A DNA stretch of 64,000 nt, taken from contig NZ_CAKPYE010000008.1 in NCBI RefSeq assembly GCF_934202705.1, forward strand, positions 12,528-76,527, given 5' to 3'. The stretch's first letter is position 1, and each line of letters starts with the position of its first letter. The notes under the pieces are model-generated. The model searched no databases and had not been told where the DNA came from. It was given only the letters and a program-made list of their open reading frames with translations. Position numbers and translations under genes: made by a program. Positions 6,453 through 36,008 of the stretch are shown piece after piece. This DNA is from an uncultured Limosilactobacillus sp. GTDB taxonomy: Bacteria; Bacillota; Bacilli; Lactobacillales; Lactobacillaceae.

Positions 6453-7106
6453 ATGAAAGTTATCGATAATTCAGTAATCTTAAAGATGTTCAAGCTGACG
6501 GTAGATGATAAACAGCGCCGAGCTTTTAATGAAGTTGGTAAACGGAATATGGTGACATCGGTTACGATTGAAAATGGTACGTTAGCAATGTATCACACTG
6601 AAAATGAGCAAGGCCAGAATGTGATGCTGGAAGTTTATGATGGGGCCAAGGCCTATGATCAGCATCGACAATCACCACAGTTCAATGATTTTTTGAAGGT
6701 TGCTGAGGACGCCGTTCAAGACCAACAAAAATTTGAGTTAATCCCGCAATTTTTAGGTGAGCAGGAAGTTTCATTGAATGTCACCACCGATAATCAGATG
6801 CGGGTGAATATCGTTCATTTGACGGTTAAAGCTGGTTGTGATGCCAAGTTAAAAAAGCTGTTAACCGATTATTTAACACAGGCCATGCAAGCCGAAACGG
6901 AAATCTTGGTGTGCTATGTGGCGCAAAAGCAGGATCAGCCCAATCAATGGTTAACTTTCCAAGTTTTTCAAAATGAGGAGACCTTTAAGAACTACGTTAA
7001 TTCCGCTGGCTTTAAAGAAGTGCAAAAGCAAATGGCGCCGTTGTTAGATGGTCGGCAACTCGAACAGCTGGATGGTCGCGTGTTGATGAATAAAGGACAT
7101 TACTAG
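6453..7106 (+). CDS. tandem ABM (antibiotic-biosynthesis-monooxygenase-like) domain protein
   Basis: 217 aa with two ferredoxin-like halves: LKMFKLTVDD...EVYDGAKAYDQHRQSPQF and RVNIVHLTVKAG...FQVFQNEETFKNYVNSAGF. Confidence 0.55.
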   Translation: MKVIDNSVILKMFKLTVDDKQRRAFNEVGKRNMVTSVTIENGTLAMYHTENEQGQNVMLEVYDGAKAYDQHRQSPQFNDFLKVAEDAVQDQQKFELIPQFLGEQEVSLNVTTDNQMRVNIVHLTVKAGCDAKLKKLLTDYLTQAMQAETEILVCYVAQKQDQPNQWLTFQVFQNEETFKNYVNSAGFKEVQKQMAPLLDGRQLEQLDGRVLMNKGHY

Positions 7107-7380: not shown

Positions 7381-8913
7381 TTGGCAACTAAATCAAAAGA
7401 ATTAAATATTGAAGATAAATTATGGAAAGCAGCTGATGCATTACGAGGAAGCATGGATGCTTCAGAATACCGAAATGTTGTATTAGGATTAATTTTCTTG
7501 AAGTATGCTTCTGATTCATTTGAAGAGCGGCGTCAGGAATTATTGAAGACAGATTATCCCGATGACGCTGAAGATCCTGATATGTATCTTGAGAATAATA
7601 TTTTTTGGGTACCACAAGAAGCGCGTTGGAAGAAGATTGAGCATGCTGCTAAGACACCGCAGATCGGTGAAGTAATTGATGATGCCATGACAGCAATTGA
7701 AAAGAGTAATGATTCATTTCGAGGAATTCTGAGTAAGAACTATGCTTCTCCTGATTTGGACAAGACTCGTCTAGGAGAAGTAGTTGACTTAATCTCTGAT
7801 ATTAAGGTCGGCAATAAAGAGTCAATTGACAAAGATGTATTAGGCCGAGTATATGAATACTTCTTAAACGAATTTGCTAGTCAAGAAGGAAAGCACGGTG
7901 GTGAATTCTATACGCCACGATCAATTGTTAAGATTCTGGTTGAAATGATTGAACCGTATAAGGGACGAATTTATGATCCTTGTTGTGGTTCTGGCGGAAT
8001 GTTTGTTCAATCGGAAGAGTTCGTTAGACGCCACCAAGGGGAACTAAAGGATTTACATGTTTTCGGTGAAGAATCCAACCCAACAACTTGGAAATTAGCA
8101 AAAATGAATTTGGCTATTCGGGGAATTGACAGTGACCTAGGACCTCATCAAGGTGATACCTTTACTAATGACTTACATAAGGGTGTACGCTTTAACTACA
8201 TTCTGGCTAATCCACCATTTAACATTAAAAAGTGGGGTGGAGAAAAGCTACAAGATGATGCTCGGTGGAAGTATGGGGTTCCACCAACAGGAAATGCTAA
8301 CTATGCTTGGATTGAGCATATTATTAGTAAGCTAGCTCCTGATGGTAAGGCAGGCTTCGTTCTTGCTAATGGAGCATTGTCAACATCAAATAAGGAAGAG
8401 CTAGCAATTCGTAAAGCAATCCTAGAAGATGATAAGATTGATGCCATCGTTGCTTTGCCAGAAAAGATGTTTTATTCGACCGGAATTCCAGTTTCACTGT
8501 GGTTTGTCGATATGAACAAGGAATCAGCTGATGAGCGTTCACGGAAAGGTGAAACACTATTTATTGATGCTCGTAACCTCGGTGAAATGATTGATCGGAC
8601 TCACCGAGCATTTAATGCTGAAGATATTAAAAAGGTTGCTGATACTTATCACGCTTACCGTGGAACAAATAAGCAAGAATACAAAGATATTGCCGGATTT
8701 TGTAAAATTGCTAAATTAGATGAAATTGCGAAAAATGATTATGTATTAACACCGGGGCGTTATGTAGGGCTAGCTAAACAAGAAGACGATGGTGAGCCTT
8801 ATGAGGTTAAGATGAAACGTCTGACGGGTGAATTAAAGAAACAGTTTGAGGAGAGCAATAAACTGCAAGCTCAAATTAAAGATGTTTTGAAGGAGCTTGG
8901 TTATGAGATATAG
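7381..8913 (+). CDS. hsdM: Type I restriction-modification DNA methyltransferase subunit M
   Basis: 510 aa, TTG start after gaggag. HsdM N-terminal LWKAADALRG, SAM motif IYDPCCGSGGMF, catalytic LANPPFN. Confidence 0.95.
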   Translation: MATKSKELNIEDKLWKAADALRGSMDASEYRNVVLGLIFLKYASDSFEERRQELLKTDYPDDAEDPDMYLENNIFWVPQEARWKKIEHAAKTPQIGEVIDDAMTAIEKSNDSFRGILSKNYASPDLDKTRLGEVVDLISDIKVGNKESIDKDVLGRVYEYFLNEFASQEGKHGGEFYTPRSIVKILVEMIEPYKGRIYDPCCGSGGMFVQSEEFVRRHQGELKDLHVFGEESNPTTWKLAKMNLAIRGIDSDLGPHQGDTFTNDLHKGVRFNYILANPPFNIKKWGGEKLQDDARWKYGVPPTGNANYAWIEHIISKLAPDGKAGFVLANGALSTSNKEELAIRKAILEDDKIDAIVALPEKMFYSTGIPVSLWFVDMNKESADERSRKGETLFIDARNLGEMIDRTHRAFNAEDIKKVADTYHAYRGTNKQEYKDIAGFCKIAKLDEIAKNDYVLTPGRYVGLAKQEDDGEPYEVKMKRLTGELKKQFEESNKLQAQIKDVLKELGYEI

Positions 8914-9415
8914 GAATGTGTACCTTAAAGATATTGCAGAAATAGTAATGGGACAATCACCTAAGTCGACCTTCTATAACAATGAAGGGGATGGAATGCC
9001 TTTTTTACAAGGTGTAAGAACATTCGGTGAAAATTACCCGCAAATAGATACCTATACTACAGCTTTTAATCGAGTAGCTAGCTCAGGCGAGATCTTATTT
9101 AGCGTTAGGGCTCCGGTTGGTAGAGTAAATTGGGCCAATCAAAAAATAGCTATAGGTCGTGGATTAGCTAGCATAAAGGTAAAAAATGGTTATTCAAAAG
9201 AATATCTATATTATTTTTTTAAGAGAATAGGAGATCACTTAGATTCGATAGCAACGGGAACAGTATTTACGTCGATAAATAAGAAAGAATTAGAAGAACT
9301 TAAAATAAAAATTCCAGTTGAATTATGCGATCAAAAGAGAATAGCGAGATACTTAAGAAAAATTGATTTAAAAATTGAAAAGAATAATCAGATAAATGAT
9401 AATTTAGCGGCTTAA
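8903..9415 (+). CDS. hsdS: Type I R-M specificity subunit, half-length (TRD1-A plus central conserved region, stops 3 codons after NNQINDNL)
   Basis: ATG 8903 lies 7 nt after aaggag and overlaps the hsdM 3' end. One TRD plus ...KIEKNNQINDNLAA*. Compare the full-length paralog at 13232..14341, which continues NNQINDNLLELID... Confidence 0.85.
   Translation: MRYRNVYLKDIAEIVMGQSPKSTFYNNEGDGMPFLQGVRTFGENYPQIDTYTTAFNRVASSGEILFSVRAPVGRVNWANQKIAIGRGLASIKVKNGYSKEYLYYFFKRIGDHLDSIATGTVFTSINKKELEELKIKIPVELCDQKRIARYLRKIDLKIEKNNQINDNLAA
9383..9406 (+). repeat. 24-bp direct repeat, copy 1 (hsdS central conserved region, aataatcagataaatgataattta)
   Basis: The identical 24-mer occurs at 9383, 11546 and 13709 (spacing 2163 bp). 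Its last 14 nt (9393-9406) are an inverted repeat of 10018-10031. Confidence 0.95.
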
Positions 9416-10031
9416 AAGAATTTATTTAGTAAGTTTTTCTTTAACTTGACTAATTCTTTATTTTCAGTACTATTCGTATGAATTTGATCAAATATTGGCT
9501 GAGCAATGTTATTAAAACCATCTAATAAATCTTTTGTACTAGGTATTTTAATTTCTATGTTGCTAAAATCTGATTTATTTAAATTTTTGATAGTGGTACC
9601 ACCACTACCAAGATTTCCAATTTTATTTTTTAAGGATCTTAACTCAAGAAATACCCAATAGGTGTATTTATCATCAAGAATTAATGAATTAATCTGCTGA
9701 TTAGTTTGAACAGCTCTACCTGCTAATGAAACCAATCCTGGTGTTCCTATGCAACTAACCATTATTGTATTAGCAGGCAAATATTTATTTTTTTGTAAAT
9801 TAGCTCCCAATATAGAAAGATTTTGTGTGGTTTCATCTATAAATACTTTATTATGCATATCTGGAATTTTAACAAAAGGAACATCAGTGCCATAGTTTTC
9901 TCTAACCCTTGTGCTAGGTGTCTTCCCTGTAATAATATTTTTTGCTAATGCCTTTAAAGCGATTTTTCGACTAATATTGTGTCTATATTTATTCCAAATT
10001 AATGATATGAACTCAAGTAAATTATCATTTA
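9412..10031 (-). other. silent, promoterless inverted hsdS cassette (central region + TRD2-X + C-terminal conserved region), copy 1
   Basis: Minus-strand reading gives ...NDNLLEFISLIWNKY...GKTPSTRVRENYG...(TRD)...LKKNLLNKFF*. There is no TRD1 or credible start. The N-terminal 40 aa of track ORF 9412..10149 is antisense to the recombinase start region. Confidence 0.8.
10010..10031 (-). repeat. 22-bp inverted repeat (reverse complement of taaatgataatttacttgagtt), copy 1
   Basis: aactcaagtaaattatcattta is the exact reverse complement of 13719-13740, inside the active hsdS. Confidence 0.9.
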
Positions 10032-10086
10032 ATCCACAAAGCAACTCTATGTGGTGTATTATTTTTGAAAAACGGAGAATAATACA

Positions 10087-11061
10087 ATGCAAAGAGTGGA
10101 GTCGGAGAGAGTAATTCGGGAAATGTTGCCATATCTGAATAATAAGCAACTATTGCAACTGAAAAGTATATTAAGTGAATTGATGTCTACTTCTAATAAG
10201 AATGGTGATGATTCGAAGAATAATCAGCATTTGTTGCAGAAATATTTTGCTTCTAAGCGAGCTGAAGGATGTTCTGAGAAATCATTGAAGTATTATGAAA
10301 CTACTATTACTAAGGCTTTAGGTTCAATTGGAAAAGATGCTAAAGAGATTGTTACTGATGAGTTACGAAACTATTTAACTACTTATCAACGTACTCATAA
10401 TTCTAGTAAAGTTACGATTGACAATATTAGAAGAATCCTTTCTAGTTTTTTCAATTGGCTTGAAGATGAAGATTATATTATTAAAAGCCCAGTTAGACGA
10501 ATTCATAAGGTTAAGGTGTCAACAACTGTTAAGGAGACGTATTCCGATGAAGAATTGGAACGACTTCGTGATAATTGTGCTGAATTAAGAGATTTAGCGA
10601 TGGTTGATTTTTTAGCTTCAACTGGAATGCGGGTTGGTGAATTAGTATTACTTAATCGTGACGATATTAACTTTCAAGAACGAGAATGCATAGTGTTTGG
10701 TAAAGGTAATAAAGAACGAATCGCATATTTTGATGCTCGAGCCAAATTGCATTTACAGAAATATTTATATAGTCGAACAGATGATGAAAGTGCGCTATTT
10801 GTTTCTTTGTATGAAAAGCATACTCGTCTGACTATCGGCGGGGTAGAATCACGATTAAAACAATTGGGAAAACAAGTAGGGATAGCAAAAGTATATCCCC
10901 ATAAGTTTAGAAGAACGTTGGCAACAACTGCAATTGATAAGGGGATGCCAATAGAACAATTACAACGGCTTTTAGGACATAAACGAATAGATACGACCTT
11001 GCATTATGCAATGGTGAAGCAGCAGAATGTGAAGATAGCGCATAGAAAGTATATAGGGTGA
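10087..11061 (+). CDS. tyrosine site-specific recombinase (XerC/D-phage integrase family), shufflon recombinase copy 1
   Basis: 324 aa. Catalytic signature STGMRVGEL ... HKFRRTLAT ... LLGHKRIDTTLHY (R-H-R-Y). SD ggaga upstream. Confidence 0.9.
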   Translation: MQRVESERVIREMLPYLNNKQLLQLKSILSELMSTSNKNGDDSKNNQHLLQKYFASKRAEGCSEKSLKYYETTITKALGSIGKDAKEIVTDELRNYLTTYQRTHNSSKVTIDNIRRILSSFFNWLEDEDYIIKSPVRRIHKVKVSTTVKETYSDEELERLRDNCAELRDLAMVDFLASTGMRVGELVLLNRDDINFQERECIVFGKGNKERIAYFDARAKLHLQKYLYSRTDDESALFVSLYEKHTRLTIGGVESRLKQLGKQVGIAKVYPHKFRRTLATTAIDKGMPIEQLQRLLGHKRIDTTLHYAMVKQQNVKIAHRKYIG

Positions 11062-11068
11062 TTGAAAT

Positions 11069-11578
11069 TTGAAAGTAAAATTAAAAGATCTTGTAATTAT
11101 ATCTAACGATAGGGAACAAGTTGAGAATGTTAACTTAAATAATTATGTTAGTACGGAAAATCTCCTAGCTAATAGGAATGGCGTAAAATTCCCTGCTAAT
11201 AATATGCCATCAGCTAAAACAGTTAGCACCTATAAAAAAGGAGATATTTTAGTATCAAATATAAGACCATATTTTAAGAAAATTTGGAAAGCTAAATTTA
11301 ATGGCCCAAAATCAAATGATGTAATTGCTTTTAGAACGAATAGTCCAAGATTAATGCAAGATTACTTATATGTACTTTTGCAGTCTGATAATTTTTTTGA
11401 CTATGTAACTAGCACTGCTAAGGGTACTAAAATGCCTCGTGGTGATAAAAACGCAATAAGAAATTATACGTTTGAATTACCAAACTTAAATATTCAAAAG
11501 AAAATTGCTAATACTATTTTGGTAATAGAAGAAAAAGTAAAATTGAATAATCAGATAAATGATAATTTAGCGGCTTAA
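11069..11578 (+). CDS. hsdS: Type I R-M specificity subunit, half-length (TRD1-B plus central region, ...NNQINDNLAA*), product of the duplication junction
   Basis: TTG start 7 nt after the recombinase stop. Identical over 166 aa to the N-terminal half of 13232..14341 and ends at the same gcggcttaa junction as 8903..9415. Confidence 0.8.
   Translation: MKVKLKDLVIISNDREQVENVNLNNYVSTENLLANRNGVKFPANNMPSAKTVSTYKKGDILVSNIRPYFKKIWKAKFNGPKSNDVIAFRTNSPRLMQDYLYVLLQSDNFFDYVTSTAKGTKMPRGDKNAIRNYTFELPNLNIQKKIANTILVIEEKVKLNNQINDNLAA
11546..11569 (+). repeat. 24-bp direct repeat, copy 2
   Basis: aataatcagataaatgataattta, identical to 9383-9406. Confidence 0.95.
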
Positions 11579-12194
11579 AAGAATTTATTTAGTAAGTTTT
11601 TCTTTAACTTGACTAATTCTTTATTTTCAGTACTATTCGTATGAATTTGATCAAATATTGGCTGAGCAATGTTATTAAAACCATCTAATAAATCTTTTGT
11701 ACTAGGTATTTTAATTTCTATGTTGCTAAAATCTGATTTATTTAAATTTTTGATAGTGGTACCACCACTACCAAGATTTCCAATTTTATTTTTTAAGGAT
11801 CTTAACTCAAGAAATACCCAATAGGTGTATTTATCATCAAGAATTAATGAATTAATCTGCTGATTAGTTTGAACAGCTCTACCTGCTAATGAAACCAATC
11901 CTGGTGTTCCTATGCAACTAACCATTATTGTATTAGCAGGCAAATATTTATTTTTTTGTAAATTAGCTCCCAATATAGAAAGATTTTGTGTGGTTTCATC
12001 TATAAATACTTTATTATGCATATCTGGAATTTTAACAAAAGGAACATCAGTGCCATAGTTTTCTCTAACCCTTGTGCTAGGTGTCTTCCCTGTAATAATA
12101 TTTTTTGCTAATGCCTTTAAAGCGATTTTTCGACTAATATTGTGTCTATATTTATTCCAAATTAATGATATGAACTCAAGTAAATTATCATTTA
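11575..12194 (-). other. silent inverted hsdS cassette (TRD2-X), copy 2
   Basis: Translation identical to copy 1 (track ORFs 9412..10149 and 11575..12312 are identical). Confidence 0.8.
12173..12194 (-). repeat. 22-bp inverted repeat, copy 2
   Basis: Equals 10010-10031 shifted by 2163. Reverse complement of 13719-13740. Confidence 0.9.
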
Positions 12195-12249
12195 ATCCAC
12201 AAAGCAACTCTATGTGGTGTATTATTTTTGAAAAACGGAGAATAATACA

Positions 12250-13224
12250 ATGCAAAGAGTGGAGTCGGAGAGAGTAATTCGGGAAATGTTGCCATATCTG
12301 AATAATAAGCAACTATTGCAACTGAAAAGTATATTAAGTGAATTGATGTCTACTTCTAATAAGAATGGTGATGATTCGAAGAATAATCAGCATTTGTTGC
12401 AGAAATATTTTGCTTCTAAGCGAGCTGAAGGATGTTCTGAGAAATCATTGAAGTATTATGAAACTACTATTACTAAGGCTTTAGGTTCAATTGGAAAAGA
12501 TGCTAAAGAGATTGTTACTGATGAGTTACGAAACTATTTAACTACTTATCAACGTACTCATAATTCTAGTAAAGTTACGATTGACAATATTAGAAGAATC
12601 CTTTCTAGTTTTTTCAATTGGCTTGAAGATGAAGATTATATTATTAAAAGCCCAGTTAGACGAATTCATAAGGTTAAGGTGTCAACAACTGTTAAGGAGA
12701 CGTATTCCGATGAAGAATTGGAACGACTTCGTGATAATTGTGCTGAATTAAGAGATTTAGCGATGGTTGATTTTTTAGCTTCAACTGGAATGCGGGTTGG
12801 TGAATTAGTATTACTTAATCGTGACGATATTAACTTTCAAGAACGAGAATGCATAGTGTTTGGTAAAGGTAATAAAGAACGAATCGCATATTTTGATGCT
12901 CGAGCCAAATTGCATTTACAGAAATATTTATATAGTCGAACAGATGATGAAAGTGCGCTATTTGTTTCTTTGTATGAAAAGCATACTCGTCTGACTATCG
13001 GCGGGGTAGAATCACGATTAAAACAATTGGGAAAACAAGTAGGGATAGCAAAAGTATATCCCCATAAGTTTAGAAGAACGTTGGCAACAACTGCAATTGA
13101 TAAGGGGATGCCAATAGAACAATTACAACGGCTTTTAGGACATAAACGAATAGATACGACCTTGCATTATGCAATGGTGAAGCAGCAGAATGTGAAGATA
13201 GCGCATAGAAAGTATATAGGGTGA
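12250..13224 (+). CDS. tyrosine site-specific recombinase, copy 2 (identical translation to 10087..11061)
   Basis: The 324-aa translation in the track is identical to copy 1. Confidence 0.9.
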   Translation: MQRVESERVIREMLPYLNNKQLLQLKSILSELMSTSNKNGDDSKNNQHLLQKYFASKRAEGCSEKSLKYYETTITKALGSIGKDAKEIVTDELRNYLTTYQRTHNSSKVTIDNIRRILSSFFNWLEDEDYIIKSPVRRIHKVKVSTTVKETYSDEELERLRDNCAELRDLAMVDFLASTGMRVGELVLLNRDDINFQERECIVFGKGNKERIAYFDARAKLHLQKYLYSRTDDESALFVSLYEKHTRLTIGGVESRLKQLGKQVGIAKVYPHKFRRTLATTAIDKGMPIEQLQRLLGHKRIDTTLHYAMVKQQNVKIAHRKYIG

Positions 13225-13231
13225 TTGAAAT

Positions 13232-14341
13232 TTGAAAGTAAAATTAAAAGATCTTGTAATTATATCTAACGATAGGGAACAAGTTGAGAATGTTAACTTA
13301 AATAATTATGTTAGTACGGAAAATCTCCTAGCTAATAGGAATGGCGTAAAATTCCCTGCTAATAATATGCCATCAGCTAAAACAGTTAGCACCTATAAAA
13401 AAGGAGATATTTTAGTATCAAATATAAGACCATATTTTAAGAAAATTTGGAAAGCTAAATTTAATGGCCCAAAATCAAATGATGTAATTGCTTTTAGAAC
13501 GAATAGTCCAAGATTAATGCAAGATTACTTATATGTACTTTTGCAGTCTGATAATTTTTTTGACTATGTAACTAGCACTGCTAAGGGTACTAAAATGCCT
13601 CGTGGTGATAAAAACGCAATAAGAAATTATACGTTTGAATTACCAAACTTAAATATTCAAAAGAAAATTGCTAATACTATTTTGGTAATAGAAGAAAAAG
13701 TAAAATTGAATAATCAGATAAATGATAATTTACTTGAGTTAATTGATGTATATTTCTTAAAACTTTTAGATAATTCAACACTCATTGAAAAAACTATTAA
13801 TGACATTGGGAGTGTCGTTGGTGGTGGCACTCCTTCTAAGAAAAATAAAGATTATTGGAATGGTAGCATATCATGGATTACCCCTAAAGATCTCTCTCAG
13901 AATCCATCCGTTTTTACTTCGCATGGTGAAAACTTTATTACAGAATTAGGATTATCTAAAGGGAGTGCAAAGTTACTACCATCACACACAATTTTATTCA
14001 GTTCTCGAGCACCCATCGGTTATATTTCAATTGCTAAAAATAATATATCTACAAATCAGGGCTTTAAATCTATTATCCCTAATAAAAGATACTCATTTCA
14101 ATTTATTTATGAGTTAATGAAACATGAGACACAAGCAATCATAAATGAGGCTAATGGTTCAACATTTAAGGAAATATCAGGTAAAAGATTAAAGCAGCAT
14201 ATTGTTAAGGTCCCTCAAATAGAAAATATGGATAGATTCGATAAGCTAACATTACCGCTATTTAAACAAATAGAAAGTTTAGAAGAAGAAAATAGAAGTT
14301 TAGCAAAAATAAAAGAGCAATTACTAAACAAACTATTTTGA
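13232..14341 (+). CDS. hsdS: Type I R-M specificity subunit, full length (TRD1-B + central region + TRD2-Y + C-terminal region)
   Basis: 369 aa with two TRDs separated by KLNNQINDNLLELID, and C-terminal KEQLLNKLF. TTG start 7 nt after the recombinase stop. hsdR follows 52 nt downstream. Confidence 0.9.
   Translation: MKVKLKDLVIISNDREQVENVNLNNYVSTENLLANRNGVKFPANNMPSAKTVSTYKKGDILVSNIRPYFKKIWKAKFNGPKSNDVIAFRTNSPRLMQDYLYVLLQSDNFFDYVTSTAKGTKMPRGDKNAIRNYTFELPNLNIQKKIANTILVIEEKVKLNNQINDNLLELIDVYFLKLLDNSTLIEKTINDIGSVVGGGTPSKKNKDYWNGSISWITPKDLSQNPSVFTSHGENFITELGLSKGSAKLLPSHTILFSSRAPIGYISIAKNNISTNQGFKSIIPNKRYSFQFIYELMKHETQAIINEANGSTFKEISGKRLKQHIVKVPQIENMDRFDKLTLPLFKQIESLEEENRSLAKIKEQLLNKLF
13709..13740 (+). 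repeat. 24-bp direct repeat copy 3 (13709-13732) overlapping the 22-bp inverted-repeat arm (13719-13740)
   Basis: aataatcagataaatgataattta, then cttgagtt. taaatgataatttacttgagtt is mirrored at 10010-10031 and 12173-12194. Confidence 0.9.
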
Positions 14342-14393
14342 TTACTAAATTATCATTTATCCATCCAACCTAAAAGAAAGAGGTGATTAACCC

Positions 14394-17300
14394 ATGACAA
14401 GTTATTTTAATGAACAAGATGTTGAAGGAGTTGCTTTGCAATGCCTTGGTGATGTTGGTTATCAGGTGTATAAAAGTGCTAGTTATACGGGACCAAGCGT
14501 GATGATTGATGAAGAGCGAGATAATGATCATACTCAGGTTATCTTGAAAAAGAGACTAGCTAATGCTTTGCGAAAGATTAATCCCGGCTATAATGAGGAA
14601 ATTTACAAAAACGCAGTTCACCAGTTTGAACGATTAGCAGAAAGTCCAGATATGATGCTCAATAATCATAAGCTTCATCAACTTATTATCGGTGGTGCTA
14701 AGGTGAAGACATCTGACAATGGTGAAGACAGGACGTTTACCCTGTACCCGATTGACTTTAATAATGTCCATAATAATGATTTTATTGCGACTAACCAATT
14801 TACCGTCAAGCAAGGGGATCACGAGCGACGGCCAGATGTTACTCTCTTTATTAATGGCTTACCGTTAGTAACATTTGAGTTAAAAAATCCTGCTAATGTC
14901 AACGTAGGCATTCAGCAAGCCTTTGCACAACTGTCTACTTATAAATCAGAAATTCCAGAGTATATGCAATACAACGAAATTTTAATAATTTCGGATGGAA
15001 CTAATGCCCGTGCTGGTTCACTAACTGCGGGGATTGATCGTTTTATGCGTTGGCGTGAGCCAAGAGACGTTCAAGTTGATGAGTCGATGATGGAGCTTGA
15101 AATCTTAATTAAGTATATGCTTCGACCAGCTGATTTATTGAATTTAATTCAGAACTTTATTTTATTTGAAACTGACGGCGACAAGACTATTAAGATTCTT
15201 GCAGCGTACCACCAGTATTATATGGTAAACAAGGCGGTAAAACGGACTGCTAAGACGTTGAAGAACCCTGATGATGATCGAATTGGGGTCGTTTGGCATA
15301 CCACTGGTTCAGGCAAGTCATTATCAATGGTCTTTTATTCAGGGATTGTTGCACGCAAGCTTGGGAACCCAACAATCTTGGTAATTAATGACCGAAATGA
15401 TTTAGATGATCAGTTATACGGCACTTTTGCCTCGGCTCATGAATACTTACAGCAAAATCCGGATCATGCTGAATCTCGTGATGAAGTGCGCGAGTACATG
15501 AGTAAAAATTCTGGCGGGATTGTCTTTAGCACCATTCAAAAGTTTTCGCCTAGTTTTGAAGCTGGCGAAGAGCAGATGCCCGTATTAACTAATCGATCAA
15601 ACGTTATTGTCATGGTTGATGAAGCTCACCGTTCACAGTATGGAATGGAAGCAAAATTTACTGATAATGGTATTCGTTATGGCTATGCTAAATATTTACG
15701 GGAAGCCCTTCCCCATGCGTCATTTATTGGCTTTACTGGGACACCAATTAATAAGGCAGATAAATCGACAGTTGCAATGTTTGGTAATTATATTGATGTA
15801 TACGACATTACCCAAGCAGTTAACGATCACGCGACAGTTCGAATCTATTATGAAAGTCACGTGTTCCCGCTAAAGCTAAAGAAAAATGCAATTGCGGAAT
15901 ATCAGAAGTTAATCAAAGAAGCGGGGATTAATGATGATCCTAACCTGCGAGAAAATGAGCGGCGTAATCGGGCTTTCACTCGCTTAGAAGCTCTTGCTGG
16001 TGCTAAGCCACGTTTAGAGAAGATTGCCCAACACTTCGTTCACCATTTTGAAGCTCGTCAAAAAGAAGAATTTGGGAAGTCAATGATTGTTGAAATGTCC
16101 CGTCGGAATGCAATTAAGCTCTATAATGAAATTATTAAGCTACGACCTGAATGGGCAAGTGATGATATTAATAAGGGTAAAATCAAGGTTATTATGACCT
16201 CTAATGCTTCTGATGGTCCAGAGTTTGCTAAATTTAAGACGAGCAAGCAGGATCGTTTTACGCTGCAAAAACGGATGAAGGATAATCATGACGAACTACA
16301 AATTGTGATTGTCGTTGATATGTGGTTGACTGGCTTTGATGTGCCTAGTATGAATACAATGTATATTGATAAACCGATGCAGGGTCATAACTTAATTCAA
16401 GCAATTGCCCGGGTTAATCGGGTCTTCAAAAATAAGGATAGCGGCTTAATCGTTGACTATATCGGTATTGCCGATGCCCTTAAATTTGCTTTGAACGTTT
16501 ACTCGAAGGACGATCAAGGAAAAGTCGGCATCAATGTTGATCGGGCATTAATGTTGTTAAAAGAAAAGTACGATATTGTTAAAGAGGACTTCTTATACGG
16601 AATTGATTACTCTGGCTATGATTCAGAAGATAAGGCAACTAGACAAAAGGCAGTTAATAAGGCAGTTAATGAATTAGAAGCCGAGGACGATGAAACTAAG
16701 CAAAAATTCTTTGACGTTGTTACAGAATTGCAAAAAGCTTATGCCTTAGTATCAACTCAGCCCGAAGCCCAAGAATTAGGTGCTGAGATTGCCTTCTTTA
16801 AGATTGTAAAAGTATCGCTTACTAAACTTGATGCTACTGCTGAATATGATGGTAGCAATGGTGATCATCCCCATTCAGCGGTGGATTATCGAATGCAACA
16901 GTTATTAGATCAATCAATTATTTCCGAACCGAATGTGGATATTTACCGCGATTTAGGACTAGAACGGCCAAACTTGGATTTAATCTCTGATCAATTTTTG
17001 AAAAAAGTAAATGAGATTGAAGAAAAAGACGTTGCCGTTGCGTTACTTGAAAAGCTATTAAAAGGGCAAGTAAAGGCTTATCAGCGGACGAACATTGTAA
17101 AGGGTAAGAAGTTTGAAGAGCTACTACAAAAGTCGATTGACGATTACAATAAGCGGGGAATCACCAGTGAAATCGTAATCCGTAAGCTGATTGATATGGC
17201 AAAGGAAATCAATAAGGAACAACAGGAAGGAAAGAATCTGGGCCTTTCTAAAGAAGAAGTTGCTTTCTATGATGCCTTAGCCGATCATGAAAAAGCGGTT

Positions 17301-17528
17301 CAAGAATTAGGCGAGAAGAAACTACATTTAATTGCGGCAGAATTAGTTAAAACAGTTAAACAGCAGGCTGGTGTTGACTGGCAAAGACGGAGTAACGTTC
17401 GAGCAAAGATGCGGGTAGCTGTTAAACATTTATTACGTAAATATGGTTATCCACCTGACATTGCACCAGATGCCATTAAAACTGTAGTAAGTCAAGCAGA
17501 GCAAATGGCAACTAATGAAAATAATTAA
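14394..17528 (+). CDS. hsdR: Type I restriction enzyme R subunit (helicase-nuclease)
   Basis: 1044 aa. Walker A HTTGSGKSLSM, DEAH box VMVDEAHRSQ, later helicase motifs (GFTGTP, QAIARVNR). Confidence 0.95.
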   Translation: MTSYFNEQDVEGVALQCLGDVGYQVYKSASYTGPSVMIDEERDNDHTQVILKKRLANALRKINPGYNEEIYKNAVHQFERLAESPDMMLNNHKLHQLIIGGAKVKTSDNGEDRTFTLYPIDFNNVHNNDFIATNQFTVKQGDHERRPDVTLFINGLPLVTFELKNPANVNVGIQQAFAQLSTYKSEIPEYMQYNEILIISDGTNARAGSLTAGIDRFMRWREPRDVQVDESMMELEILIKYMLRPADLLNLIQNFILFETDGDKTIKILAAYHQYYMVNKAVKRTAKTLKNPDDDRIGVVWHTTGSGKSLSMVFYSGIVARKLGNPTILVINDRNDLDDQLYGTFASAHEYLQQNPDHAESRDEVREYMSKNSGGIVFSTIQKFSPSFEAGEEQMPVLTNRSNVIVMVDEAHRSQYGMEAKFTDNGIRYGYAKYLREALPHASFIGFTGTPINKADKSTVAMFGNYIDVYDITQAVNDHATVRIYYESHVFPLKLKKNAIAEYQKLIKEAGINDDPNLRENERRNRAFTRLEALAGAKPRLEKIAQHFVHHFEARQKEEFGKSMIVEMSRRNAIKLYNEIIKLRPEWASDDINKGKIKVIMTSNASDGPEFAKFKTSKQDRFTLQKRMKDNHDELQIVIVVDMWLTGFDVPSMNTMYIDKPMQGHNLIQAIARVNRVFKNKDSGLIVDYIGIADALKFALNVYSKDDQGKVGINVDRALMLLKEKYDIVKEDFLYGIDYSGYDSEDKATRQKAVNKAVNELEAEDDETKQKFFDVVTELQKAYALVSTQPEAQELGAEIAFFKIVKVSLTKLDATAEYDGSNGDHPHSAVDYRMQQLLDQSIISEPNVDIYRDLGLERPNLDLISDQFLKKVNEIEEKDVAVALLEKLLKGQVKAYQRTNIVKGKKFEELLQKSIDDYNKRGITSEIVIRKLIDMAKEINKEQQEGKNLGLSKEEVAFYDALADHEKAVQELGEKKLHLIAAELVKTVKQQAGVDWQRRSNVRAKMRVAVKHLLRKYGYPPDIAPDAIKTVVSQAEQMATNENN

Positions 17529-17825: not shown

Positions 17826-18746
17826 ATGAATAAAACTGACTATAAAAGAAGATCTGTTGAGAAAGCAATAGTTATGGCTCTAAGAGATTTGGGTGGCTCA
17901 GCAAGTCGAAAAGTCATTAGAAAATCAATGGCTGACAACGGATACGATGGATTAACCTACGATCAAGTTTTCTATACAAAACGAGGGAAAACAGGCACAT
18001 ATTCTCCTTTTATGTTTGACTTTAATTTTGGAATTAGAAACTTATATACAGTTGGCTATATTGAAAAACCAGAACGTGGGAAAGATATTGTATTAACAAA
18101 TCTCGGACAGAATAACAGTCTTAAAAGTTATCCAACAAAAGAGCAAGAACAAAGAATGGCTGAGTATTGGCACAAAAAAGATCAAGAGCGAGCTGAAAGA
18201 CATGCTTCCAAAGCCAAAATGGATATAAAAGAAAGTGAAGATGCCGCAACGGGGTCGGATGATCAAGAAGACACTGATAATTTAGGATGGAAATCTCAAT
18301 TATTAAATCAATTAATGAAATTTGATCCTGCAAAGTTTGAAAGTTTTTCACGGTTACTGATTTCAAAAATGGGAGTGACTATCGATAAAAAACGTGGGAT
18401 TGTCCGATCTGGAGATCATGGTATTGATGGTTTTGGATACTTTACCTCTGATGAATTTCGAACCAGTCGTGTAGCAATTCAATGTAAAAGGTACACAACT
18501 GGTGCAGTTTCCGAACCTGAAATTGATAAATTTAAAGGGGTAATGGATAGCTTTAATGCTGAATATGGAATTTTCATTACTACTAATTACTTTACGCCAC
18601 GGGCAAGATCTAAGGCGACGCAAGGTAATAACACCGTCACATTAATTGATGGGCAGGAATTAGCTGATCTTGTTGAAAAATATCAATTGCATATTACTCC
18701 TATCACCACATATGCATTAGATGATTATTATTTTGATTTAAAATAG
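17826..18746 (+). CDS. Mrr-like restriction endonuclease (N-terminal winged helix + C-terminal Mrr_cat PD-(D/E)xK domain)
   Basis: 306 aa. GDHGIDGFGYF...VAIQCKRYT...EPEIDKFKGVM...GIFITTNYFTPRA...LIDGQELADL matches the Mrr catalytic-domain pattern. Confidence 0.8.
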   Translation: MNKTDYKRRSVEKAIVMALRDLGGSASRKVIRKSMADNGYDGLTYDQVFYTKRGKTGTYSPFMFDFNFGIRNLYTVGYIEKPERGKDIVLTNLGQNNSLKSYPTKEQEQRMAEYWHKKDQERAERHASKAKMDIKESEDAATGSDDQEDTDNLGWKSQLLNQLMKFDPAKFESFSRLLISKMGVTIDKKRGIVRSGDHGIDGFGYFTSDEFRTSRVAIQCKRYTTGAVSEPEIDKFKGVMDSFNAEYGIFITTNYFTPRARSKATQGNNTVTLIDGQELADLVEKYQLHITPITTYALDDYYFDLK

Positions 18747-18752
18747 GGACTA

Positions 18753-19106
18753 TTGGAAACAGACTATACAACACTCAAACATCGAGAAGATGGTGTCATT
18801 AATCAAGATCCTCTGGGATTACAAAGGGTGTATGTTCAAGTGAAACGTTATGCATCTGACAACTCGGTGGGATGACCTGAGATAGCTGGATTTAGTGGAG
18901 TAATTAAATTGAAACACGCTAATCGTGGTGTGTTTATTACAACTTCTACATTTACAAGCGGAGCTGTACAGGTAGCCAGAGATTTAGATATTACTTTAGT
19001 TGATAGAGAAATGCTAACAAACTTAATGGTGAAGTATGGTGTGGGTGGCGAAGTGAAAAAACAGTATCGTACTTACCGTATTAATGCTGATGACTTTATT
19101 GAATAA
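18753..19106 (+). pseudogene. mrr remnant: 5'-truncated C-terminal Mrr_cat fragment with an in-frame TGA
   Basis: A single frame reads ...EDGVINQDPLGLQRVYVQVKRYASDNSVG*PEIAGFSGVIKLKHANRGVFITTSTFTSGAVQVARDLDITLVDREMLTNLM... The TGA is at 18873-18875, where Mrr proteins have VGRPEI (CGA->TGA). No N-terminal domain; starts right after the stop of 17826..18746. Confidence 0.75.
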
Positions 19107-19172: not shown

Positions 19173-20573
19173 GTGAATTTTATCCGATTTTATAGCATAA
19201 GTAATGGTCAACAAGATCAATTAAAAAATATGGTAAAAAAGGGTCTTCTTGCTTGTTTACCAGATGGAGAACGGTGGATGATTTTATCCCTTAGCCAGAG
19301 TAACAATTCTAAAAGCATTTATGTTTATCTTTATAATGCAGGTAATATTTACCCAATTAGAGTATCTGATCATTCAACTTGGTTTCGATTTGTTGACACA
19401 GAGTATTTTAATATTAAAGTTGACTTAAAATGTGATATTCCATTAGTTGAACAAATAAAAGAACAGTTTGAAATAGCAACTGCTCCAACGGTGAAGCTGG
19501 ATCTTCCAGAATTTTTAATACTAGAAATGGTTTATTCAACCCATGAGGCTTATAATCCGATCGGTATTTTTATTCGTGATAATGGAACTTTAACGATAGA
19601 AAGAACAAATGAGGGTAAACCAGTTGCGATAAATAATTCGAATGTTTATCAAATTTTTGAAAAGTTAATAAAAATTAACTTGATTAAAGTTCATACAAAT
19701 GGCTATTTATCAGTAACTCATAATGGGTTAGATATTTTACGCAAGTATAAACGACTAAGATTAAGATCTTGGCCAAAATCAATTAGAGAGTATGATTGGT
19801 GGTCAACTCTTCATCAAGTATATTTAATTATTGATTCTAAAGGGTCTCATAAAAGTTATAGTAAAAACGCTAAACCAGATTATCATGAAGATTTAGATTA
19901 TTATTACGAATTGTTTAATCTTAAAAAGAATACTTCTACTAAAAAAGAAGGTATTCAAGCTAAGAAAGAATCACCTAAATTATGGAGAACTCAGCTTATT
20001 AATTGTCTAAAGGGCTCATTGCCTTATGGTTCAACCTTAGTTGCTATAACTTCTGTTACAAGAAAAAGAATTATATATGTTCAAATTATGGCTGGTGATC
20101 TTTTATATATGGTATGTTTCAGTTCTGATAGGAAAGAATGTATGGAAGATAGCCCAAACATCTGCATCCTACCAGATAAAATTTCAAATTTAAAAAAGCA
20201 TTTTACTAAAACATTCCCATTATATAATTTCAGGTATACAAAGGTAGATCAAAAATCACTTTTATGGCTTCGTTATTTGCAATTAATTAATGAATCAAAA
20301 AGAGAATATGTAATTAATTTGTCAAAGGAAAATGTGAATATAGAAGACCATAATCATATTTCTAGAGTCCTTCCAAAGCCAGAAGCTAAACGTTATCAAT
20401 TAATGGTTAAATTATGTTGGGTTGATGAATTGAACAATTTGGTTAGTATCTCTGATATTGGTAAACAAATACTTGAAAATTATTCAAAAACAATTATCAA
20501 TAAATCCATGTCTTGGAACTTGCAGATTCAAAGAATGAAACTAAAAACAATAGAGAATCTTTTGAATATATAG
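19173..20573 (+). CDS. hypothetical protein (466 aa) built from two homologous ~200-aa halves
   Basis: Start uncertain (GTG 19173 or ATG 19230). Half 1 LLACLPDGERWMILSLSQSNNSKSIYVYLYNAGNIYPIRVSDH...YQIFEKLIKINLIKVHTNGYLSVTHNGLDILRKY parallels half 2 LKGSLPYGSTLVAITSVTRKRIIYVQIMAGDLLYMVCFSSDR...YQLMVKLCWVDELNNLVSISDIGKQILENY. No family recognised. Confidence 0.6.
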   Translation: MNFIRFYSISNGQQDQLKNMVKKGLLACLPDGERWMILSLSQSNNSKSIYVYLYNAGNIYPIRVSDHSTWFRFVDTEYFNIKVDLKCDIPLVEQIKEQFEIATAPTVKLDLPEFLILEMVYSTHEAYNPIGIFIRDNGTLTIERTNEGKPVAINNSNVYQIFEKLIKINLIKVHTNGYLSVTHNGLDILRKYKRLRLRSWPKSIREYDWWSTLHQVYLIIDSKGSHKSYSKNAKPDYHEDLDYYYELFNLKKNTSTKKEGIQAKKESPKLWRTQLINCLKGSLPYGSTLVAITSVTRKRIIYVQIMAGDLLYMVCFSSDRKECMEDSPNICILPDKISNLKKHFTKTFPLYNFRYTKVDQKSLLWLRYLQLINESKREYVINLSKENVNIEDHNHISRVLPKPEAKRYQLMVKLCWVDELNNLVSISDIGKQILENYSKTIINKSMSWNLQIQRMKLKTIENLLNI

Positions 20574-20585
20574 GAGTTTTAATAA

Positions 20586-21191
20586 ATGATTGTATGGTCA
20601 ATCCAACCTTATGAAGTCTATGAACAATTGCTTACTAAGGGCACTTTCATTTGTGATCCAGCTAAGTCTATAAACTTGCAGAGTGATTTGGAATTCAATG
20701 TTCATGATTTTGAAAATGCCTATAATTGGATGATTAAACAAATGAATCGAAGAATTGGTAATCCTCCGAATGGTGTCACGTTACCTGTTTGGGTTTGGTA
20801 TAAGTATAATTATTCGCATCGTCATCCAGATTTTCGGACATATCGCGACTATGATAATCAAGTTTGCTTAGAGTTGAATATTCCAGAGAATCAAATACTT
20901 TTAAGCGATTATGATAACTGGCACTTTGTTTTAAATGACTGGTATTTAAATGATGCTAAAAGTGATGAAGAATGGCATAAGAAAGATGACTGGTTTGATA
21001 ATTTGTCTCCGCTTAAACAAAAACGAGTGAAAGAAAGATCTTGGCAACGTATATTTGACGTGACACCAAGAAAAGGTGAATGGACACAAAATGGTGCTTT
21101 TGTTCAAGGATGCTGTTGGTATTTTAAGAAAGACCAAATTAGCCATGTTTGGTATTCAAAGAAGGGACAACGTTGTCAGCAGATTTTGTAA
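20586..21191 (+). CDS. hypothetical protein, DUF3841-like (recollection only)
   Basis: 201 aa. SD aggag. 12-nt gap after the 466-aa gene. N-terminus MIVWSIQPYEVYEQLLTKGTFICD resembles the DUF3841 start pattern as remembered. Trp/Tyr-rich. Confidence 0.45.
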   Translation: MIVWSIQPYEVYEQLLTKGTFICDPAKSINLQSDLEFNVHDFENAYNWMIKQMNRRIGNPPNGVTLPVWVWYKYNYSHRHPDFRTYRDYDNQVCLELNIPENQILLSDYDNWHFVLNDWYLNDAKSDEEWHKKDDWFDNLSPLKQKRVKERSWQRIFDVTPRKGEWTQNGAFVQGCCWYFKKDQISHVWYSKKGQRCQQIL

Positions 21192-34309: not shown

Positions 34310-34598
34310 CCAATCAAACGGTATGAACAACCACTTAGAATAGGAAATTAGCTCAATGTTGCCTAGTCAGCGAACCCAAGTTAGTGCGAGTGGGGATTGG
34401 CTCAGAGAGTGAAAGTAGCCTAGGAGTGGCTAAGGTGAGAACAATTGTAGCTTTAGCCGGGTACGCCCGTTATCGCGTCAACGTATCTAGATGACTATGT
34501 ACGGGGTAAGGGAGTAATAGTAATATTGCTCTAAAGTAAGGTGGTAACGCGCGTGAAGGCGTCCTTATAAGCATTGAGCTTATAGGGGCGCCTTTTTT
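34310..34598 (+). promoter_or_regulatory. T-box riboswitch leader upstream of brnQ
   Basis: Promoter ttgacg (34276-34281), 17 nt, taaggt (34299-34304). AGAGAG/GAAAGTA boxes at about 34404-34417. T-box core aaggtggtaacgcg (34538-34551). Terminator aggcgtccttataagc / gcttataggggcgcct plus T6 (34557-34598). Confidence 0.75.
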
Positions 34599-34640
34599 CA
34601 TACCATAATGATAACAATTTAAATAGGGGGATTGATTAAA

Positions 34641-36008
34641 ATGAAAACAATCAAGGCAAGTATTCAACAGTCGATCATTATTGCATCTCTGATTTTTGGA
34701 ATGTTATTTGGGGCGGGAAACTTGATTTTTCCGGTTCATTTGGGCCAATTAGCTGGTCGTCATTGGTTAATGGCCAGTAGCGGTTTCCTGATTTCTGGTG
34801 TGTTGTTACCATTAATAGCATTACTGGCAATCAGTATCACTAGATCGAATGGAATTTACGACTTAGCCTTGCCTAACGGTCGTTATTATGCTTTGATCTT
34901 TTTAATTCTTGTTCACGCCACGTTAGGACCATTATTTGCAACCCCACGGACGGCAACGGTGCCTTATGAGATCGGAATTTCCCAACATTTACCTGCTACA
35001 GCGAATGGTTGGGGACTGTTGATTTATTCGGCAATGTTCTTTGGTTTGGTTTATCGATTTTCCAATCACGAAGGAAAAATTACGACACTGATTGGGAAAG
35101 TTTTAAATCCATTATTCCTCTTACTGCTTTTTATCATTTTTCTATTAGCATTTATGCACCCACTCGGCGCTGCCAAGTCAGCAAGCGAAACTGGAACATA
35201 TCTTAGTCATGCTTTTACGAATGGCTTTTTGCAAGGGTATAACACCATGGATGGGCTGGCTTCATTAGCGTTTGGCATTACGGTAATTACGGCGGTTAAG
35301 GGGCTAGGAATCAAAAAGCCACAACAGATTTCGTTAGCGACCGCCAAGAGTGGGACCCTTGGGATTGCAGGAATTGCCATTATTTATCTGATTTTAATTT
35401 GGCTAGGTGCAACGAGCCTGCATCACTTTAGTCTCGCTGCTAATGGTGGCATTACCCTTGCCCAAATTTCTAATTACTACTTAGGAACAGTTGGTAATGC
35501 CATTTTGGCGGTTTTAGCAACGATTACTTGTATGACGTCAGCGATGGGGTTAGTAATCGCTTTTTCACAAGACTTTCATCGCCGTTTTCCACGAATTAGT
35601 TATCGGACATTTCTCCGCGCTAATTGTGGTTTATCATTTCTGTTTGCCAATTTGGGTCTCAACCAAATTATTACTTGGTCAACGCCAATTTTGATGTTCC
35701 TTTATCCATTAGCGATTACCCTCATCATTTTAGGACTGCTTTCGCCATTGTTTAAACATGACCGGATTGTTTATCAGGTTACGACTGGGCTAACTTTGAT
35801 TCCAGCATTCTTTGATATGATTCATGCATTACCAACGGGGCTGCAAAAAAGCGAATTAGTGCAAATGTTAGTTGAATTTGCACAGCATTACTTTCCATTC
35901 TTTAAACTCGGCTTTGGCTGGTTAACCTTTGCGCTAATTGGACTGATAATTGGGTTAGTCGGCCATACTCTGAAAATATGCAAACAAACAATGCTGGTTG
36001 ATGAGTAG
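34641..36008 (+). CDS. brnQ: branched-chain amino acid transport system II carrier (LIVCS family)
   Basis: ATG 34641, 10 nt after aggggg. GMLFGAGNLIFPVHLG N-terminal signature, 12 TM. Confidence 0.9.
   Translation: MKTIKASIQQSIIIASLIFGMLFGAGNLIFPVHLGQLAGRHWLMASSGFLISGVLLPLIALLAISITRSNGIYDLALPNGRYYALIFLILVHATLGPLFATPRTATVPYEIGISQHLPATANGWGLLIYSAMFFGLVYRFSNHEGKITTLIGKVLNPLFLLLLFIIFLLAFMHPLGAAKSASETGTYLSHAFTNGFLQGYNTMDGLASLAFGITVITAVKGLGIKKPQQISLATAKSGTLGIAGIAIIYLILIWLGATSLHHFSLAANGGITLAQISNYYLGTVGNAILAVLATITCMTSAMGLVIAFSQDFHRRFPRISYRTFLRANCGLSFLFANLGLNQIITWSTPILMFLYPLAITLIILGLLSPLFKHDRIVYQVTTGLTLIPAFFDMIHALPTGLQKSELVQMLVEFAQHYFPFFKLGFGWLTFALIGLIIGLVGHTLKICKQTMLVDE

Follow-up and report, generated by a model that had tools for sequence, protein, structure and literature searches.

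The window analyzed here, a 64,000-nt stretch of contig NZ_CAKPYE010000008.1 (positions 12,528 to 76,527) from an uncultured Limosilactobacillus sp., carries a complete Type I restriction-modification (R-M) system, with hsdM, hsdS, and hsdR all present as uninterrupted open reading frames (ORFs), and with tyrosine recombinase genes lying among its hsdS sequences. Our analysis indicated that this locus is probably an LsrA-type shufflon, a Type I system with phase variation, in which direct repeats have recombined or are still recombining. The locus starts with hsdM (7381-8913, plus strand), which encodes a 510-aa methyltransferase subunit (Pfam N6_Mtase, 370 bits; HsdM_N, 109 bits) sharing 96-97% amino acid identity with the hsdM products of two related loci (L002 and L003), and ends with hsdR (14394-17528, plus strand; 1044 aa; Pfam HSDR_N, SWI2_SNF2, and T1RH-like_C; NCBIfam TIGR00348, 585 bits). 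All Pfam calls for the parts of the locus were above the curated cut-offs, as was the NCBIfam call for the R subunit. No tRNA genes and no Rfam matches were found inside the locus.

Between hsdM and hsdR, the first element is a half hsdS gene (8897/8903-9415, plus strand; 172 aa; Pfam Methylase_S, 78 bits) that encodes a target recognition domain (TRD), TRD1-A, and the first part of the central helix. Its ORF stops two codons past a 14-nt core sequence (S1) because the tail of an inverted TRD2-X cassette comes next, and its product ends in ...NDNL-AA*. The X cassette (9407-10017, or 9407-10031 including its core, minus strand; Methylase_S, 66 bits on ORF 9412-10149) points with its tail toward TRD1-A and with its head toward the region upstream of a tyrosine recombinase gene (10087-11061, plus strand; 324 aa; Pfam Phage_integrase, 111 bits, and SAM_4; NCBIfam NF040815, 230 bits with a cut-off of 220). 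A truncated half hsdS with TRD1-B follows (11069-11578, plus strand; 169 aa; Methylase_S, 32 bits), and then come a second X cassette (11570-12180, or 11570-12194 including its core, minus strand) and a second recombinase gene (12250-13224, plus strand), each identical to its first copy. The last specificity gene is a full-length hsdS (13232-14341, plus strand; 369 aa; Methylase_S, 98 bits in two stretches) composed of TRD1-B, the central region, and TRD2-Y; its residues 1-167 are identical to those of the B-half. The full-length protein has two TRDs and a central conserved helix, in which the core lies within ...NNQINDNLLEL.... The TRDs are mutually distant (25% identity between A and B, 27% between X and Y). 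The closest relative of the full-length HsdS is P0121 (72% identical over 96% of its length), and full-length A-like plus X-like HsdS proteins occur in relatives (P0001, 75% identity; P0002, 73%).

An earlier sequence-only reading had proposed hsdM, the A-half, an inverted X cassette, a tyrosine recombinase, the B+Y hsdS, and hsdR, and all of these were recovered by the Pfam searches; its TRD assignments also held against the Methylase_S hidden Markov model, with the scores given above for A, X, the B-half, and B+Y. That reading had counted a single copy each of the X cassette, the recombinase, and TRD1-B, a count that fails on the exact tandem duplication described below, and it had overlooked the core located after the hsdS stop.

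The 14-nt core (TAAATGATAATTTA) is present at every module boundary in six exact copies, three per strand: S1 (9393-9406), S3 (11556-11569), and S5 (13719-13732) on the plus strand, and S2 (10018-10031), S4 (12181-12194), and S6 (14346-14359) on the minus strand. The chance expectation for this core is 0.18 copies, and six copies were reached in none of 100 dinucleotide-preserving shuffles. The common central-region sequence (...AAATGATAATTTA...) noted in the earlier reading proved to be this core, in both orientations. The plus-strand copies code for NDNL of the central helix, S5 doing so within the central conserved region of the full-length hsdS, and S6 is non-coding, lying 4 nt past the hsdS stop and 34 nt before hsdR. 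On either side of each TRD2 cassette lie inverted cores with a spacing of 611 or 613 nt, and the locus contains more than one hsdS sequence together with inverted repeats within or flanking hsdS. The site-specific recombinase is encoded in the locus itself and is intact in both copies; its catalytic motif blocks (R, K, HxxR, H, and Y) align with those of the solved Pyrococcus abyssi XerA structure (4a8e). A weak promoter-like match (TCCACA, an 18-nt spacer, and TATTAT) was found at 10033-10062 and 12196-12225, directly past cores S2 and S4, which places it some 25 nt ahead of the start codon in both recombinase genes; if this match is real, the recombinase transcript would begin beside the recombination site. 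Promoter-like sites as a whole were not enriched in the region (35 versus 47.5 expected), and no terminator-like site was found.

The geometry of the cores suggests how modules could be exchanged. Each 3′ TRD cassette would consist of a head (the N-terminal side), a stop codon, and a tail of a few bases, held between two inverted cores, and four ports would be available to it. P1 (beside hsdM) and P3 are the ends of TRD1-A and TRD1-B, respectively; P2 and P4 are dead ends, the former upstream of the recombinase and the latter upstream of hsdR. A full-length hsdS would arise only where the head of a cassette joins a TRD1 port, and any other hsdS would end just past the core; opposite the X-tail, the truncated gene would end in -AA*. 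As read from the sequence, the cassette heads in the window point inward, with a truncated TRD1-A, a silent X, and B+Y as the expressed form. From this state, inversion of the module containing the recombinase and TRD1-B, between S2 and the next plus-strand core, would convert B+Y to B+X in one step, and the formation of A+X or A+Y would need a cassette flip or excision and reintegration. In a state with the heads outward, inversion between the outermost cores would swap the TRD2 joined to TRD1-A. These one-step routes are deduced from the geometry of the locus. This strain may switch its specificity, and the half-length subunits may be functional.

To place the locus among its relatives, a recombinase search covering one genome per species was performed, which found 147 relatives, of which 80 were kept. 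The best matches were from Lactobacillaceae (Limosilactobacillus reuteri, 87%), followed by Clostridia (62-69%), and a few relatives came from metagenome-assembled genomes (MAGs) labelled Prevotella, Bacteroidales, or Treponema. The gene order hsdM-hsdS-rec-hsdS-hsdR was found in about 60 of the 80 relatives (Lactobacillaceae and Clostridia), and the recombinase gene was inverted relative to hsdM or hsdR in six loci. The layout with M and R outside and with the S genes and recombinase between them, which the sequence-only reading had set apart from the pneumococcal arrangement, is therefore not distinctive but the norm in this family, and it has been described for L. reuteri and for the Enterococcus faecalis T8 type (PMC7672463). 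The family core (TAAAYRATAATTTA) was conserved, and 45 relatives had exactly four copies in the order + - + -, two on each side of the recombinase, hereafter the canonical arrangement. The core of the window is identical to that of the Lactobacillaceae members, and the window follows the M-S-rec-S-R order that defines the LsrA type, with six cores instead of four. In 22 of the canonical relatives, hsdS1 was truncated and hsdS2 was full length, which is the state of the window; the reverse was found in 16 loci, both genes were full length in two, and both were truncated in one. Exactly one full-length and one truncated hsdS were thus present in 38 of the 45 loci, indicating that one full-length specificity gene at a time is the rule.

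Rearrangement within the family was visible in metagenomes, in which a scan with a 24-nt core-plus-flank sequence returned 17 loci. Four loci (L091, L097, L100, and L085) were 99-100% identical per segment and were found in four arrangements, with breakpoints inside 14-20 nt containing the core: relative to L091, both cassettes were flipped in L097, the module was flipped as well in L100, and the two cassettes were exchanged in L085. The same kind of variation was found in L086/L090, L092/L096, and L093/L101. For the family, the evidence supports the shufflon reading well, and the proposal of the sequence-only reading that a recombinase-associated hsdS shufflon could in principle encode A+X, A+Y, B+X, B+Y, and half forms is upheld by the rearrangements in L. 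reuteri and in these metagenome isoforms. Two other relatives are degenerate: in L079, a 23-aa piece from the C terminus of the recombinase lies between hsdM and the first hsdS (6648-6716), and L012 (7779-8819) lacks the first hsdS and the first 48 recombinase codons. Each looks like the scar of an earlier deletion or rearrangement.

Across the family, the outer arms of the core (TAAAY/ATTTA) are constant, and the central bases vary between loci and agree within a locus, as shown by exact inverted-repeat pairs in each locus. Constant arms with a central part that covaries among the sites of one locus are the pattern expected for a tyrosine-recombinase crossover site. This pattern points to the core as a putative crossover site at which the recombinase of the locus would act. 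A literature search with the core sequence found no relevant paper. Directly after the core and opposite many cassette tails, GCGGCTTA(A/G) was found from Lactobacillaceae to Clostridia, at 9407-9415 and 11570-11578 in the window and in many other loci (e.g., L022, L030, L033, L046, and L070), and the truncated HsdS proteins at these loci all terminate in ...NDNL-AA*. This sequence is missing from the Y cassette of the window, and a flip of Y would instead append a 25-residue hydrophobic tail. The conservation of GCGGCTTA could reflect either selection for clean termination or a part of the recombinase binding site.

What distinguishes the window from its relatives is an exact tandem duplication at 9382-13732, which comprises two 2163-nt units (9382-11544 and 11545-13707) and a third copy of the boundary repeat (13708-13732). 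Positions 9382-11569 and 11545-13732 are the same over 2188 nt, with zero mismatches and a period of 2163, and because of this duplication, the inverted TRD2-X cassette, the recombinase, and TRD1-B each occur twice. Its boundaries are three direct copies of a 25-nt sequence (GAATAATCAGATAAATGATAATTTA) that include the direct cores, and the duplicated unit consists of inverted X, a core, the recombinase, TRD1-B, and a core. The B-half product owes its existence to the duplication junction (J3; 11545-11578, plus strand), at which TRD1-B, the core, and the X-tail meet at the end of the B-half. Removal of one unit would leave the canonical four cores in place of the + - + - + - pattern of the window; more than four cores were found in none of the 80 + 17 related loci. 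The direct cores at its boundaries suggest that the duplication is a product of recombination between them, by unequal sister exchange or by reintegration of an excised circle, and it looks like a by-product of the locus recombinase.

Other assemblies of the same strain provided evidence on whether this junction exists in DNA. Exact-sequence look-ups placed the B+Y protein on two public contigs, the longest of 214 kb, the A-half protein on three, and the 169-aa B-half product on only one, of 93,465 nt. Metagenome ERZ28625501 holds the same strain (100% identity) with the locus in pieces: one contig ends at 9436, one spans exactly 10018-11569, and one starts at 14305. Two of these ends, 9436 and 14305, are both found exactly 55 nt inside a shared region, suggesting a de Bruijn graph with K=55, and such graphs were simulated for twelve molecule mixtures. 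The ends in ERZ28625501 were reproduced exactly only by the canonical locus together with two junctions, J3 and J7, the latter joining the Y-tail, the core, and P2 upstream of the recombinase. Adding the module inversion to J3 and J7 left the simulated ends unchanged. The mixtures 'canon+circ1+circ2' and 'canon+dupJ3+dupJ7' gave identical simulated ends, and J3 and J7 could thus fit either tandem duplications or circles without reciprocal deletions. Recombination between direct repeats of the canonical locus would be expected to yield both junctions, J3 from its two plus-strand cores and J7 from its two minus-strand cores. Wrong contig ends were obtained with the canonical locus alone, the J3 duplication alone, the module inversion, the X flip, and the Y flip, as well as with the large S1-to-last-core inversion and with circles plus deletions.

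These data indicated that the duplication junction very likely exists in the real DNA of this strain, and the contig ends point only to direct-core junctions and to no inverted-core ones. The duplication itself may be present in real molecules, and we lean modestly toward the view that two units stand on the chromosome as written in the window. Several observations weigh against this view or against the broader interpretation of the locus as a switching shufflon, and they are considered here with the alternatives on which they bear. According to cluster tables, the 214-kb contig includes the A-half together with X and B+Y, but the B-half is apparently missing from it, which means that a second assembly, apparently of the same strain, seems to be without the duplication. 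The evidence on inversion and duplication in this strain consists of assembled contigs rather than single molecules, and the K=55 argument assumes the k-mer size of the assembler. The duplication could be an assembly artefact, with a canonical four-core locus, as in the sequence-only reading, on the true chromosome and a tangled graph threaded twice via a minority junction, for instance from a circle or a rare isoform. The restriction of the B-half to one 93-kb public contig, the occurrence of more than four cores in 0 of 97 related loci, and the 100% identity of the two copies are all consistent with such an artefact, as is the fact that a circle plus a chromosome looks like a tandem duplication in a short-read graph. 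However, the B/core/X-tail junction must exist in the reads for the assembler to output it, and the contig ends in an independent assembly of this strain also depend on it. Those ends also do not include the reciprocal deletion junctions expected of circles, which favors duplications over circles. We consider the artefact a serious contender that nevertheless falls short of being the better explanation.

A different concern is that the locus, including its duplication, may be a relic in a fixed arrangement that no longer switches at any biologically meaningful rate. Predicted A+X, A+Y, and B+X proteins, with the A forms queried with two alternative starts, gave zero matches in about 15 billion public proteins, leaving the strain with no recombinant HsdS in public data. 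The contig ends of the metagenome contain no A/head or P4/head junctions and hence no sign of cassette flips or of the large S1-to-last-core inversion; they are nevertheless compatible with module inversion. Set against a frozen locus are the two intact recombinase copies with aligned catalytic motifs, the perfection of all six cores, the two different direct-core junctions deduced for the same strain, and the rearrangements of close relatives and of L. reuteri. A frozen relic is, in our judgment, unlikely.

It is also conceivable that the repeats (14-25 nt) were recombined by host homologous recombination or replication slippage rather than by the locus recombinase. A precedent for this comes from pneumococcal spnIII, for which rearrangement without any of the known site-specific recombinases of the pneumococcus has been reported (PMC6620402), and a 25-nt direct repeat could allow slippage. 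Against both processes, the core is kept across the surveyed relatives (mostly Bacillota, with a few MAGs assigned elsewhere), including non-coding copies after stops and upstream of the recombinase; its arms are constant and its center is matched within the locus, as for a tyrosine-recombinase site, and the recombinase gene keeps its syntenic position in about 60 loci. We therefore regard host recombination as quite unlikely, and we retain as the probable reading an LsrA-type shufflon whose direct repeats were recombined by its own recombinase.

Combining the family rule with the duplication, we tentatively propose a joint model, itself rather doubtful as a whole. In this model, a single core used four times would enforce one full-length HsdS, and two long inversions would toggle the 3′ TRD joined to it, whereas a change of regime between TRD1-A and TRD1-B would occur via direct-core recombination and not via single-cassette flips. 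The direct-core route would proceed by excision and reintegration or by unequal exchange, and could also yield tandem amplification of the recombinase-bearing unit. The window would then represent an intermediate or a by-product of this route, and J7 would be a second junction of the same type in the same strain.

The surroundings of the locus contain further genes of interest. Directly downstream of hsdR lies a gene for an Mrr-type (Type IV, methyl-directed) endonuclease (17826-18746; Pfam Mrr_cat, 103 bits; PADLOC mREase_IV), which, with the Type I system, makes up a small cluster of defence genes. A 65-aa ORF (18909-19106) matches only the C-terminal end of Mrr_cat and is probably the remnant of a second Mrr copy. 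It is followed by a 466-aa ORF without a Pfam or PADLOC match (19173-20573) and by a gene for a DUF3841 protein (20586-21191), both of which may be part of the same defence island. Further downstream, a T-box leader (34327-34569; Rfam RF00230, 93.3 bits with a gathering score of 93) precedes a gene for a branched-chain amino acid transporter (34632-36008; Pfam Branch_AA_trans), and positions 36249-40565 encode a surface protein of 1438 aa that combines a YSIRK signal peptide with DUF285 repeats and two mucus-binding (MucB2) domains. The MucB2 surface protein points to a host-associated, gut-type lactobacillus.

If the locus switches, a clone could alter its methylome as well as the range of phages and plasmids that it restricts, with a bearing on strain transformability and phage resistance. 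The general phenomenon and the M-S-rec-S-R layout are already documented. The window adds a possible footprint of direct-repeat recombination, namely a recombinase-module duplication, at a locus of the inverting type, and the family picture of one conserved 14-nt core at four sites, almost always with one full-length and one truncated hsdS, gives testable rules for which specificities lie one recombination step apart. The duplication bounded by direct cores and the one-core, four-site, one-full-hsdS pattern are the only part that goes slightly beyond the searched literature. Our findings also serve as a warning that assemblies of such loci can differ for a single strain, being fragmented, canonical, or duplicated.

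Among known systems, the closest counterpart is LreRMII/LsrA of L. reuteri (LAR_1343-1347), in which TRD combinations were found to differ between clones of strain 6475, with the order hsdR-hsdSA-lsrA-hsdSB-hsdM (Ortiz-Velez et al. 2018; PMC6122466). The five-gene set and the order hsdM, hsdS, tyrosine recombinase, hsdS, hsdR are the same in the window. Compared with the L. reuteri species representative L002, the recombinase, hsdM, and hsdR are 87%, 96%, and 87% identical, respectively, and L002 has the same 14-nt core in the order + - + -, with hsdS1 truncated and hsdS2 full length. However, all four TRDs differ from those of L. reuteri, and the specificities therefore differ; in addition, the duplication gives the window a total of six cores and a second recombinase copy, unlike L002. 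The flanking genes are not syntenic, and only the R-M genes match (70-83% DNA identity), so that the host is a different species and the locus looks horizontally mobile. A plasmid origin was unsupported: in a megablast search with the whole locus, the only plasmid hit was to hsdM (76%) on a Ligilactobacillus salivarius megaplasmid.

The E. faecalis T8-type locus, with the order hsdM-hsdSA-efiA-hsdSB-hsdR, belongs to the 'epigenetic invertons' of Huang et al. 2020 (PMC7672463), who also named the megaplasmid locus of L. salivarius ZLS006 as a plasmid-borne inverton. On the ZLS006 plasmid (NZ_CP020859), we found the same layout and state as in the window and at least three occurrences of a variant core (TAAATACTAATTT) that shares the outer arms of the window core and differs in its central bases. 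The locus in the window resembles epigenetic invertons in being a Type I locus that carries two or more hsdS sequences, a locus-encoded tyrosine recombinase, and inverted repeats inside hsdS. It differs from the E. faecalis loci, whose inverted repeats are 15-60 bp long and unlike this core in sequence (PMC7672463), in having a single 14-nt core that flanks only the 3′ TRD cassettes.

In the SpnD39III/ivr (cod) locus of Streptococcus pneumoniae, with its recombinase CreX/PsrA, recombinase-associated shuffling of hsdS TRDs changes methylation specificity, and the same is predicted for the locus in the window. The pneumococcal ivr locus has the order hsdR-hsdM-hsdS-creX-hsdS'-hsdS'', with one expressed hsdS and silent inverted partial copies, and three classes of inverted repeats (15, 85, and 333 bp). 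In contrast, two co-directional hsdS positions flank the recombinase in the window, and a single type of core is used. With regard to the duplication, the SpnIV/tvr locus of S. pneumoniae offers the nearest comparison, as its recombinase TvrR mediates direct-repeat recombination in hsdS, with excision and reintegration via circles (Kwun et al. 2018; PMC6265443). The window duplication, J3, and J7 are direct-repeat products of the same formal kind, and a similar route, with a putative circle, could operate in the window. In tvr, direct repeats are the main mode, and the recombinase is under toxin-antitoxin and attenuator control, whereas the window combines direct and inverted pairs of one core, and its duplicated unit carries the recombinase gene itself.

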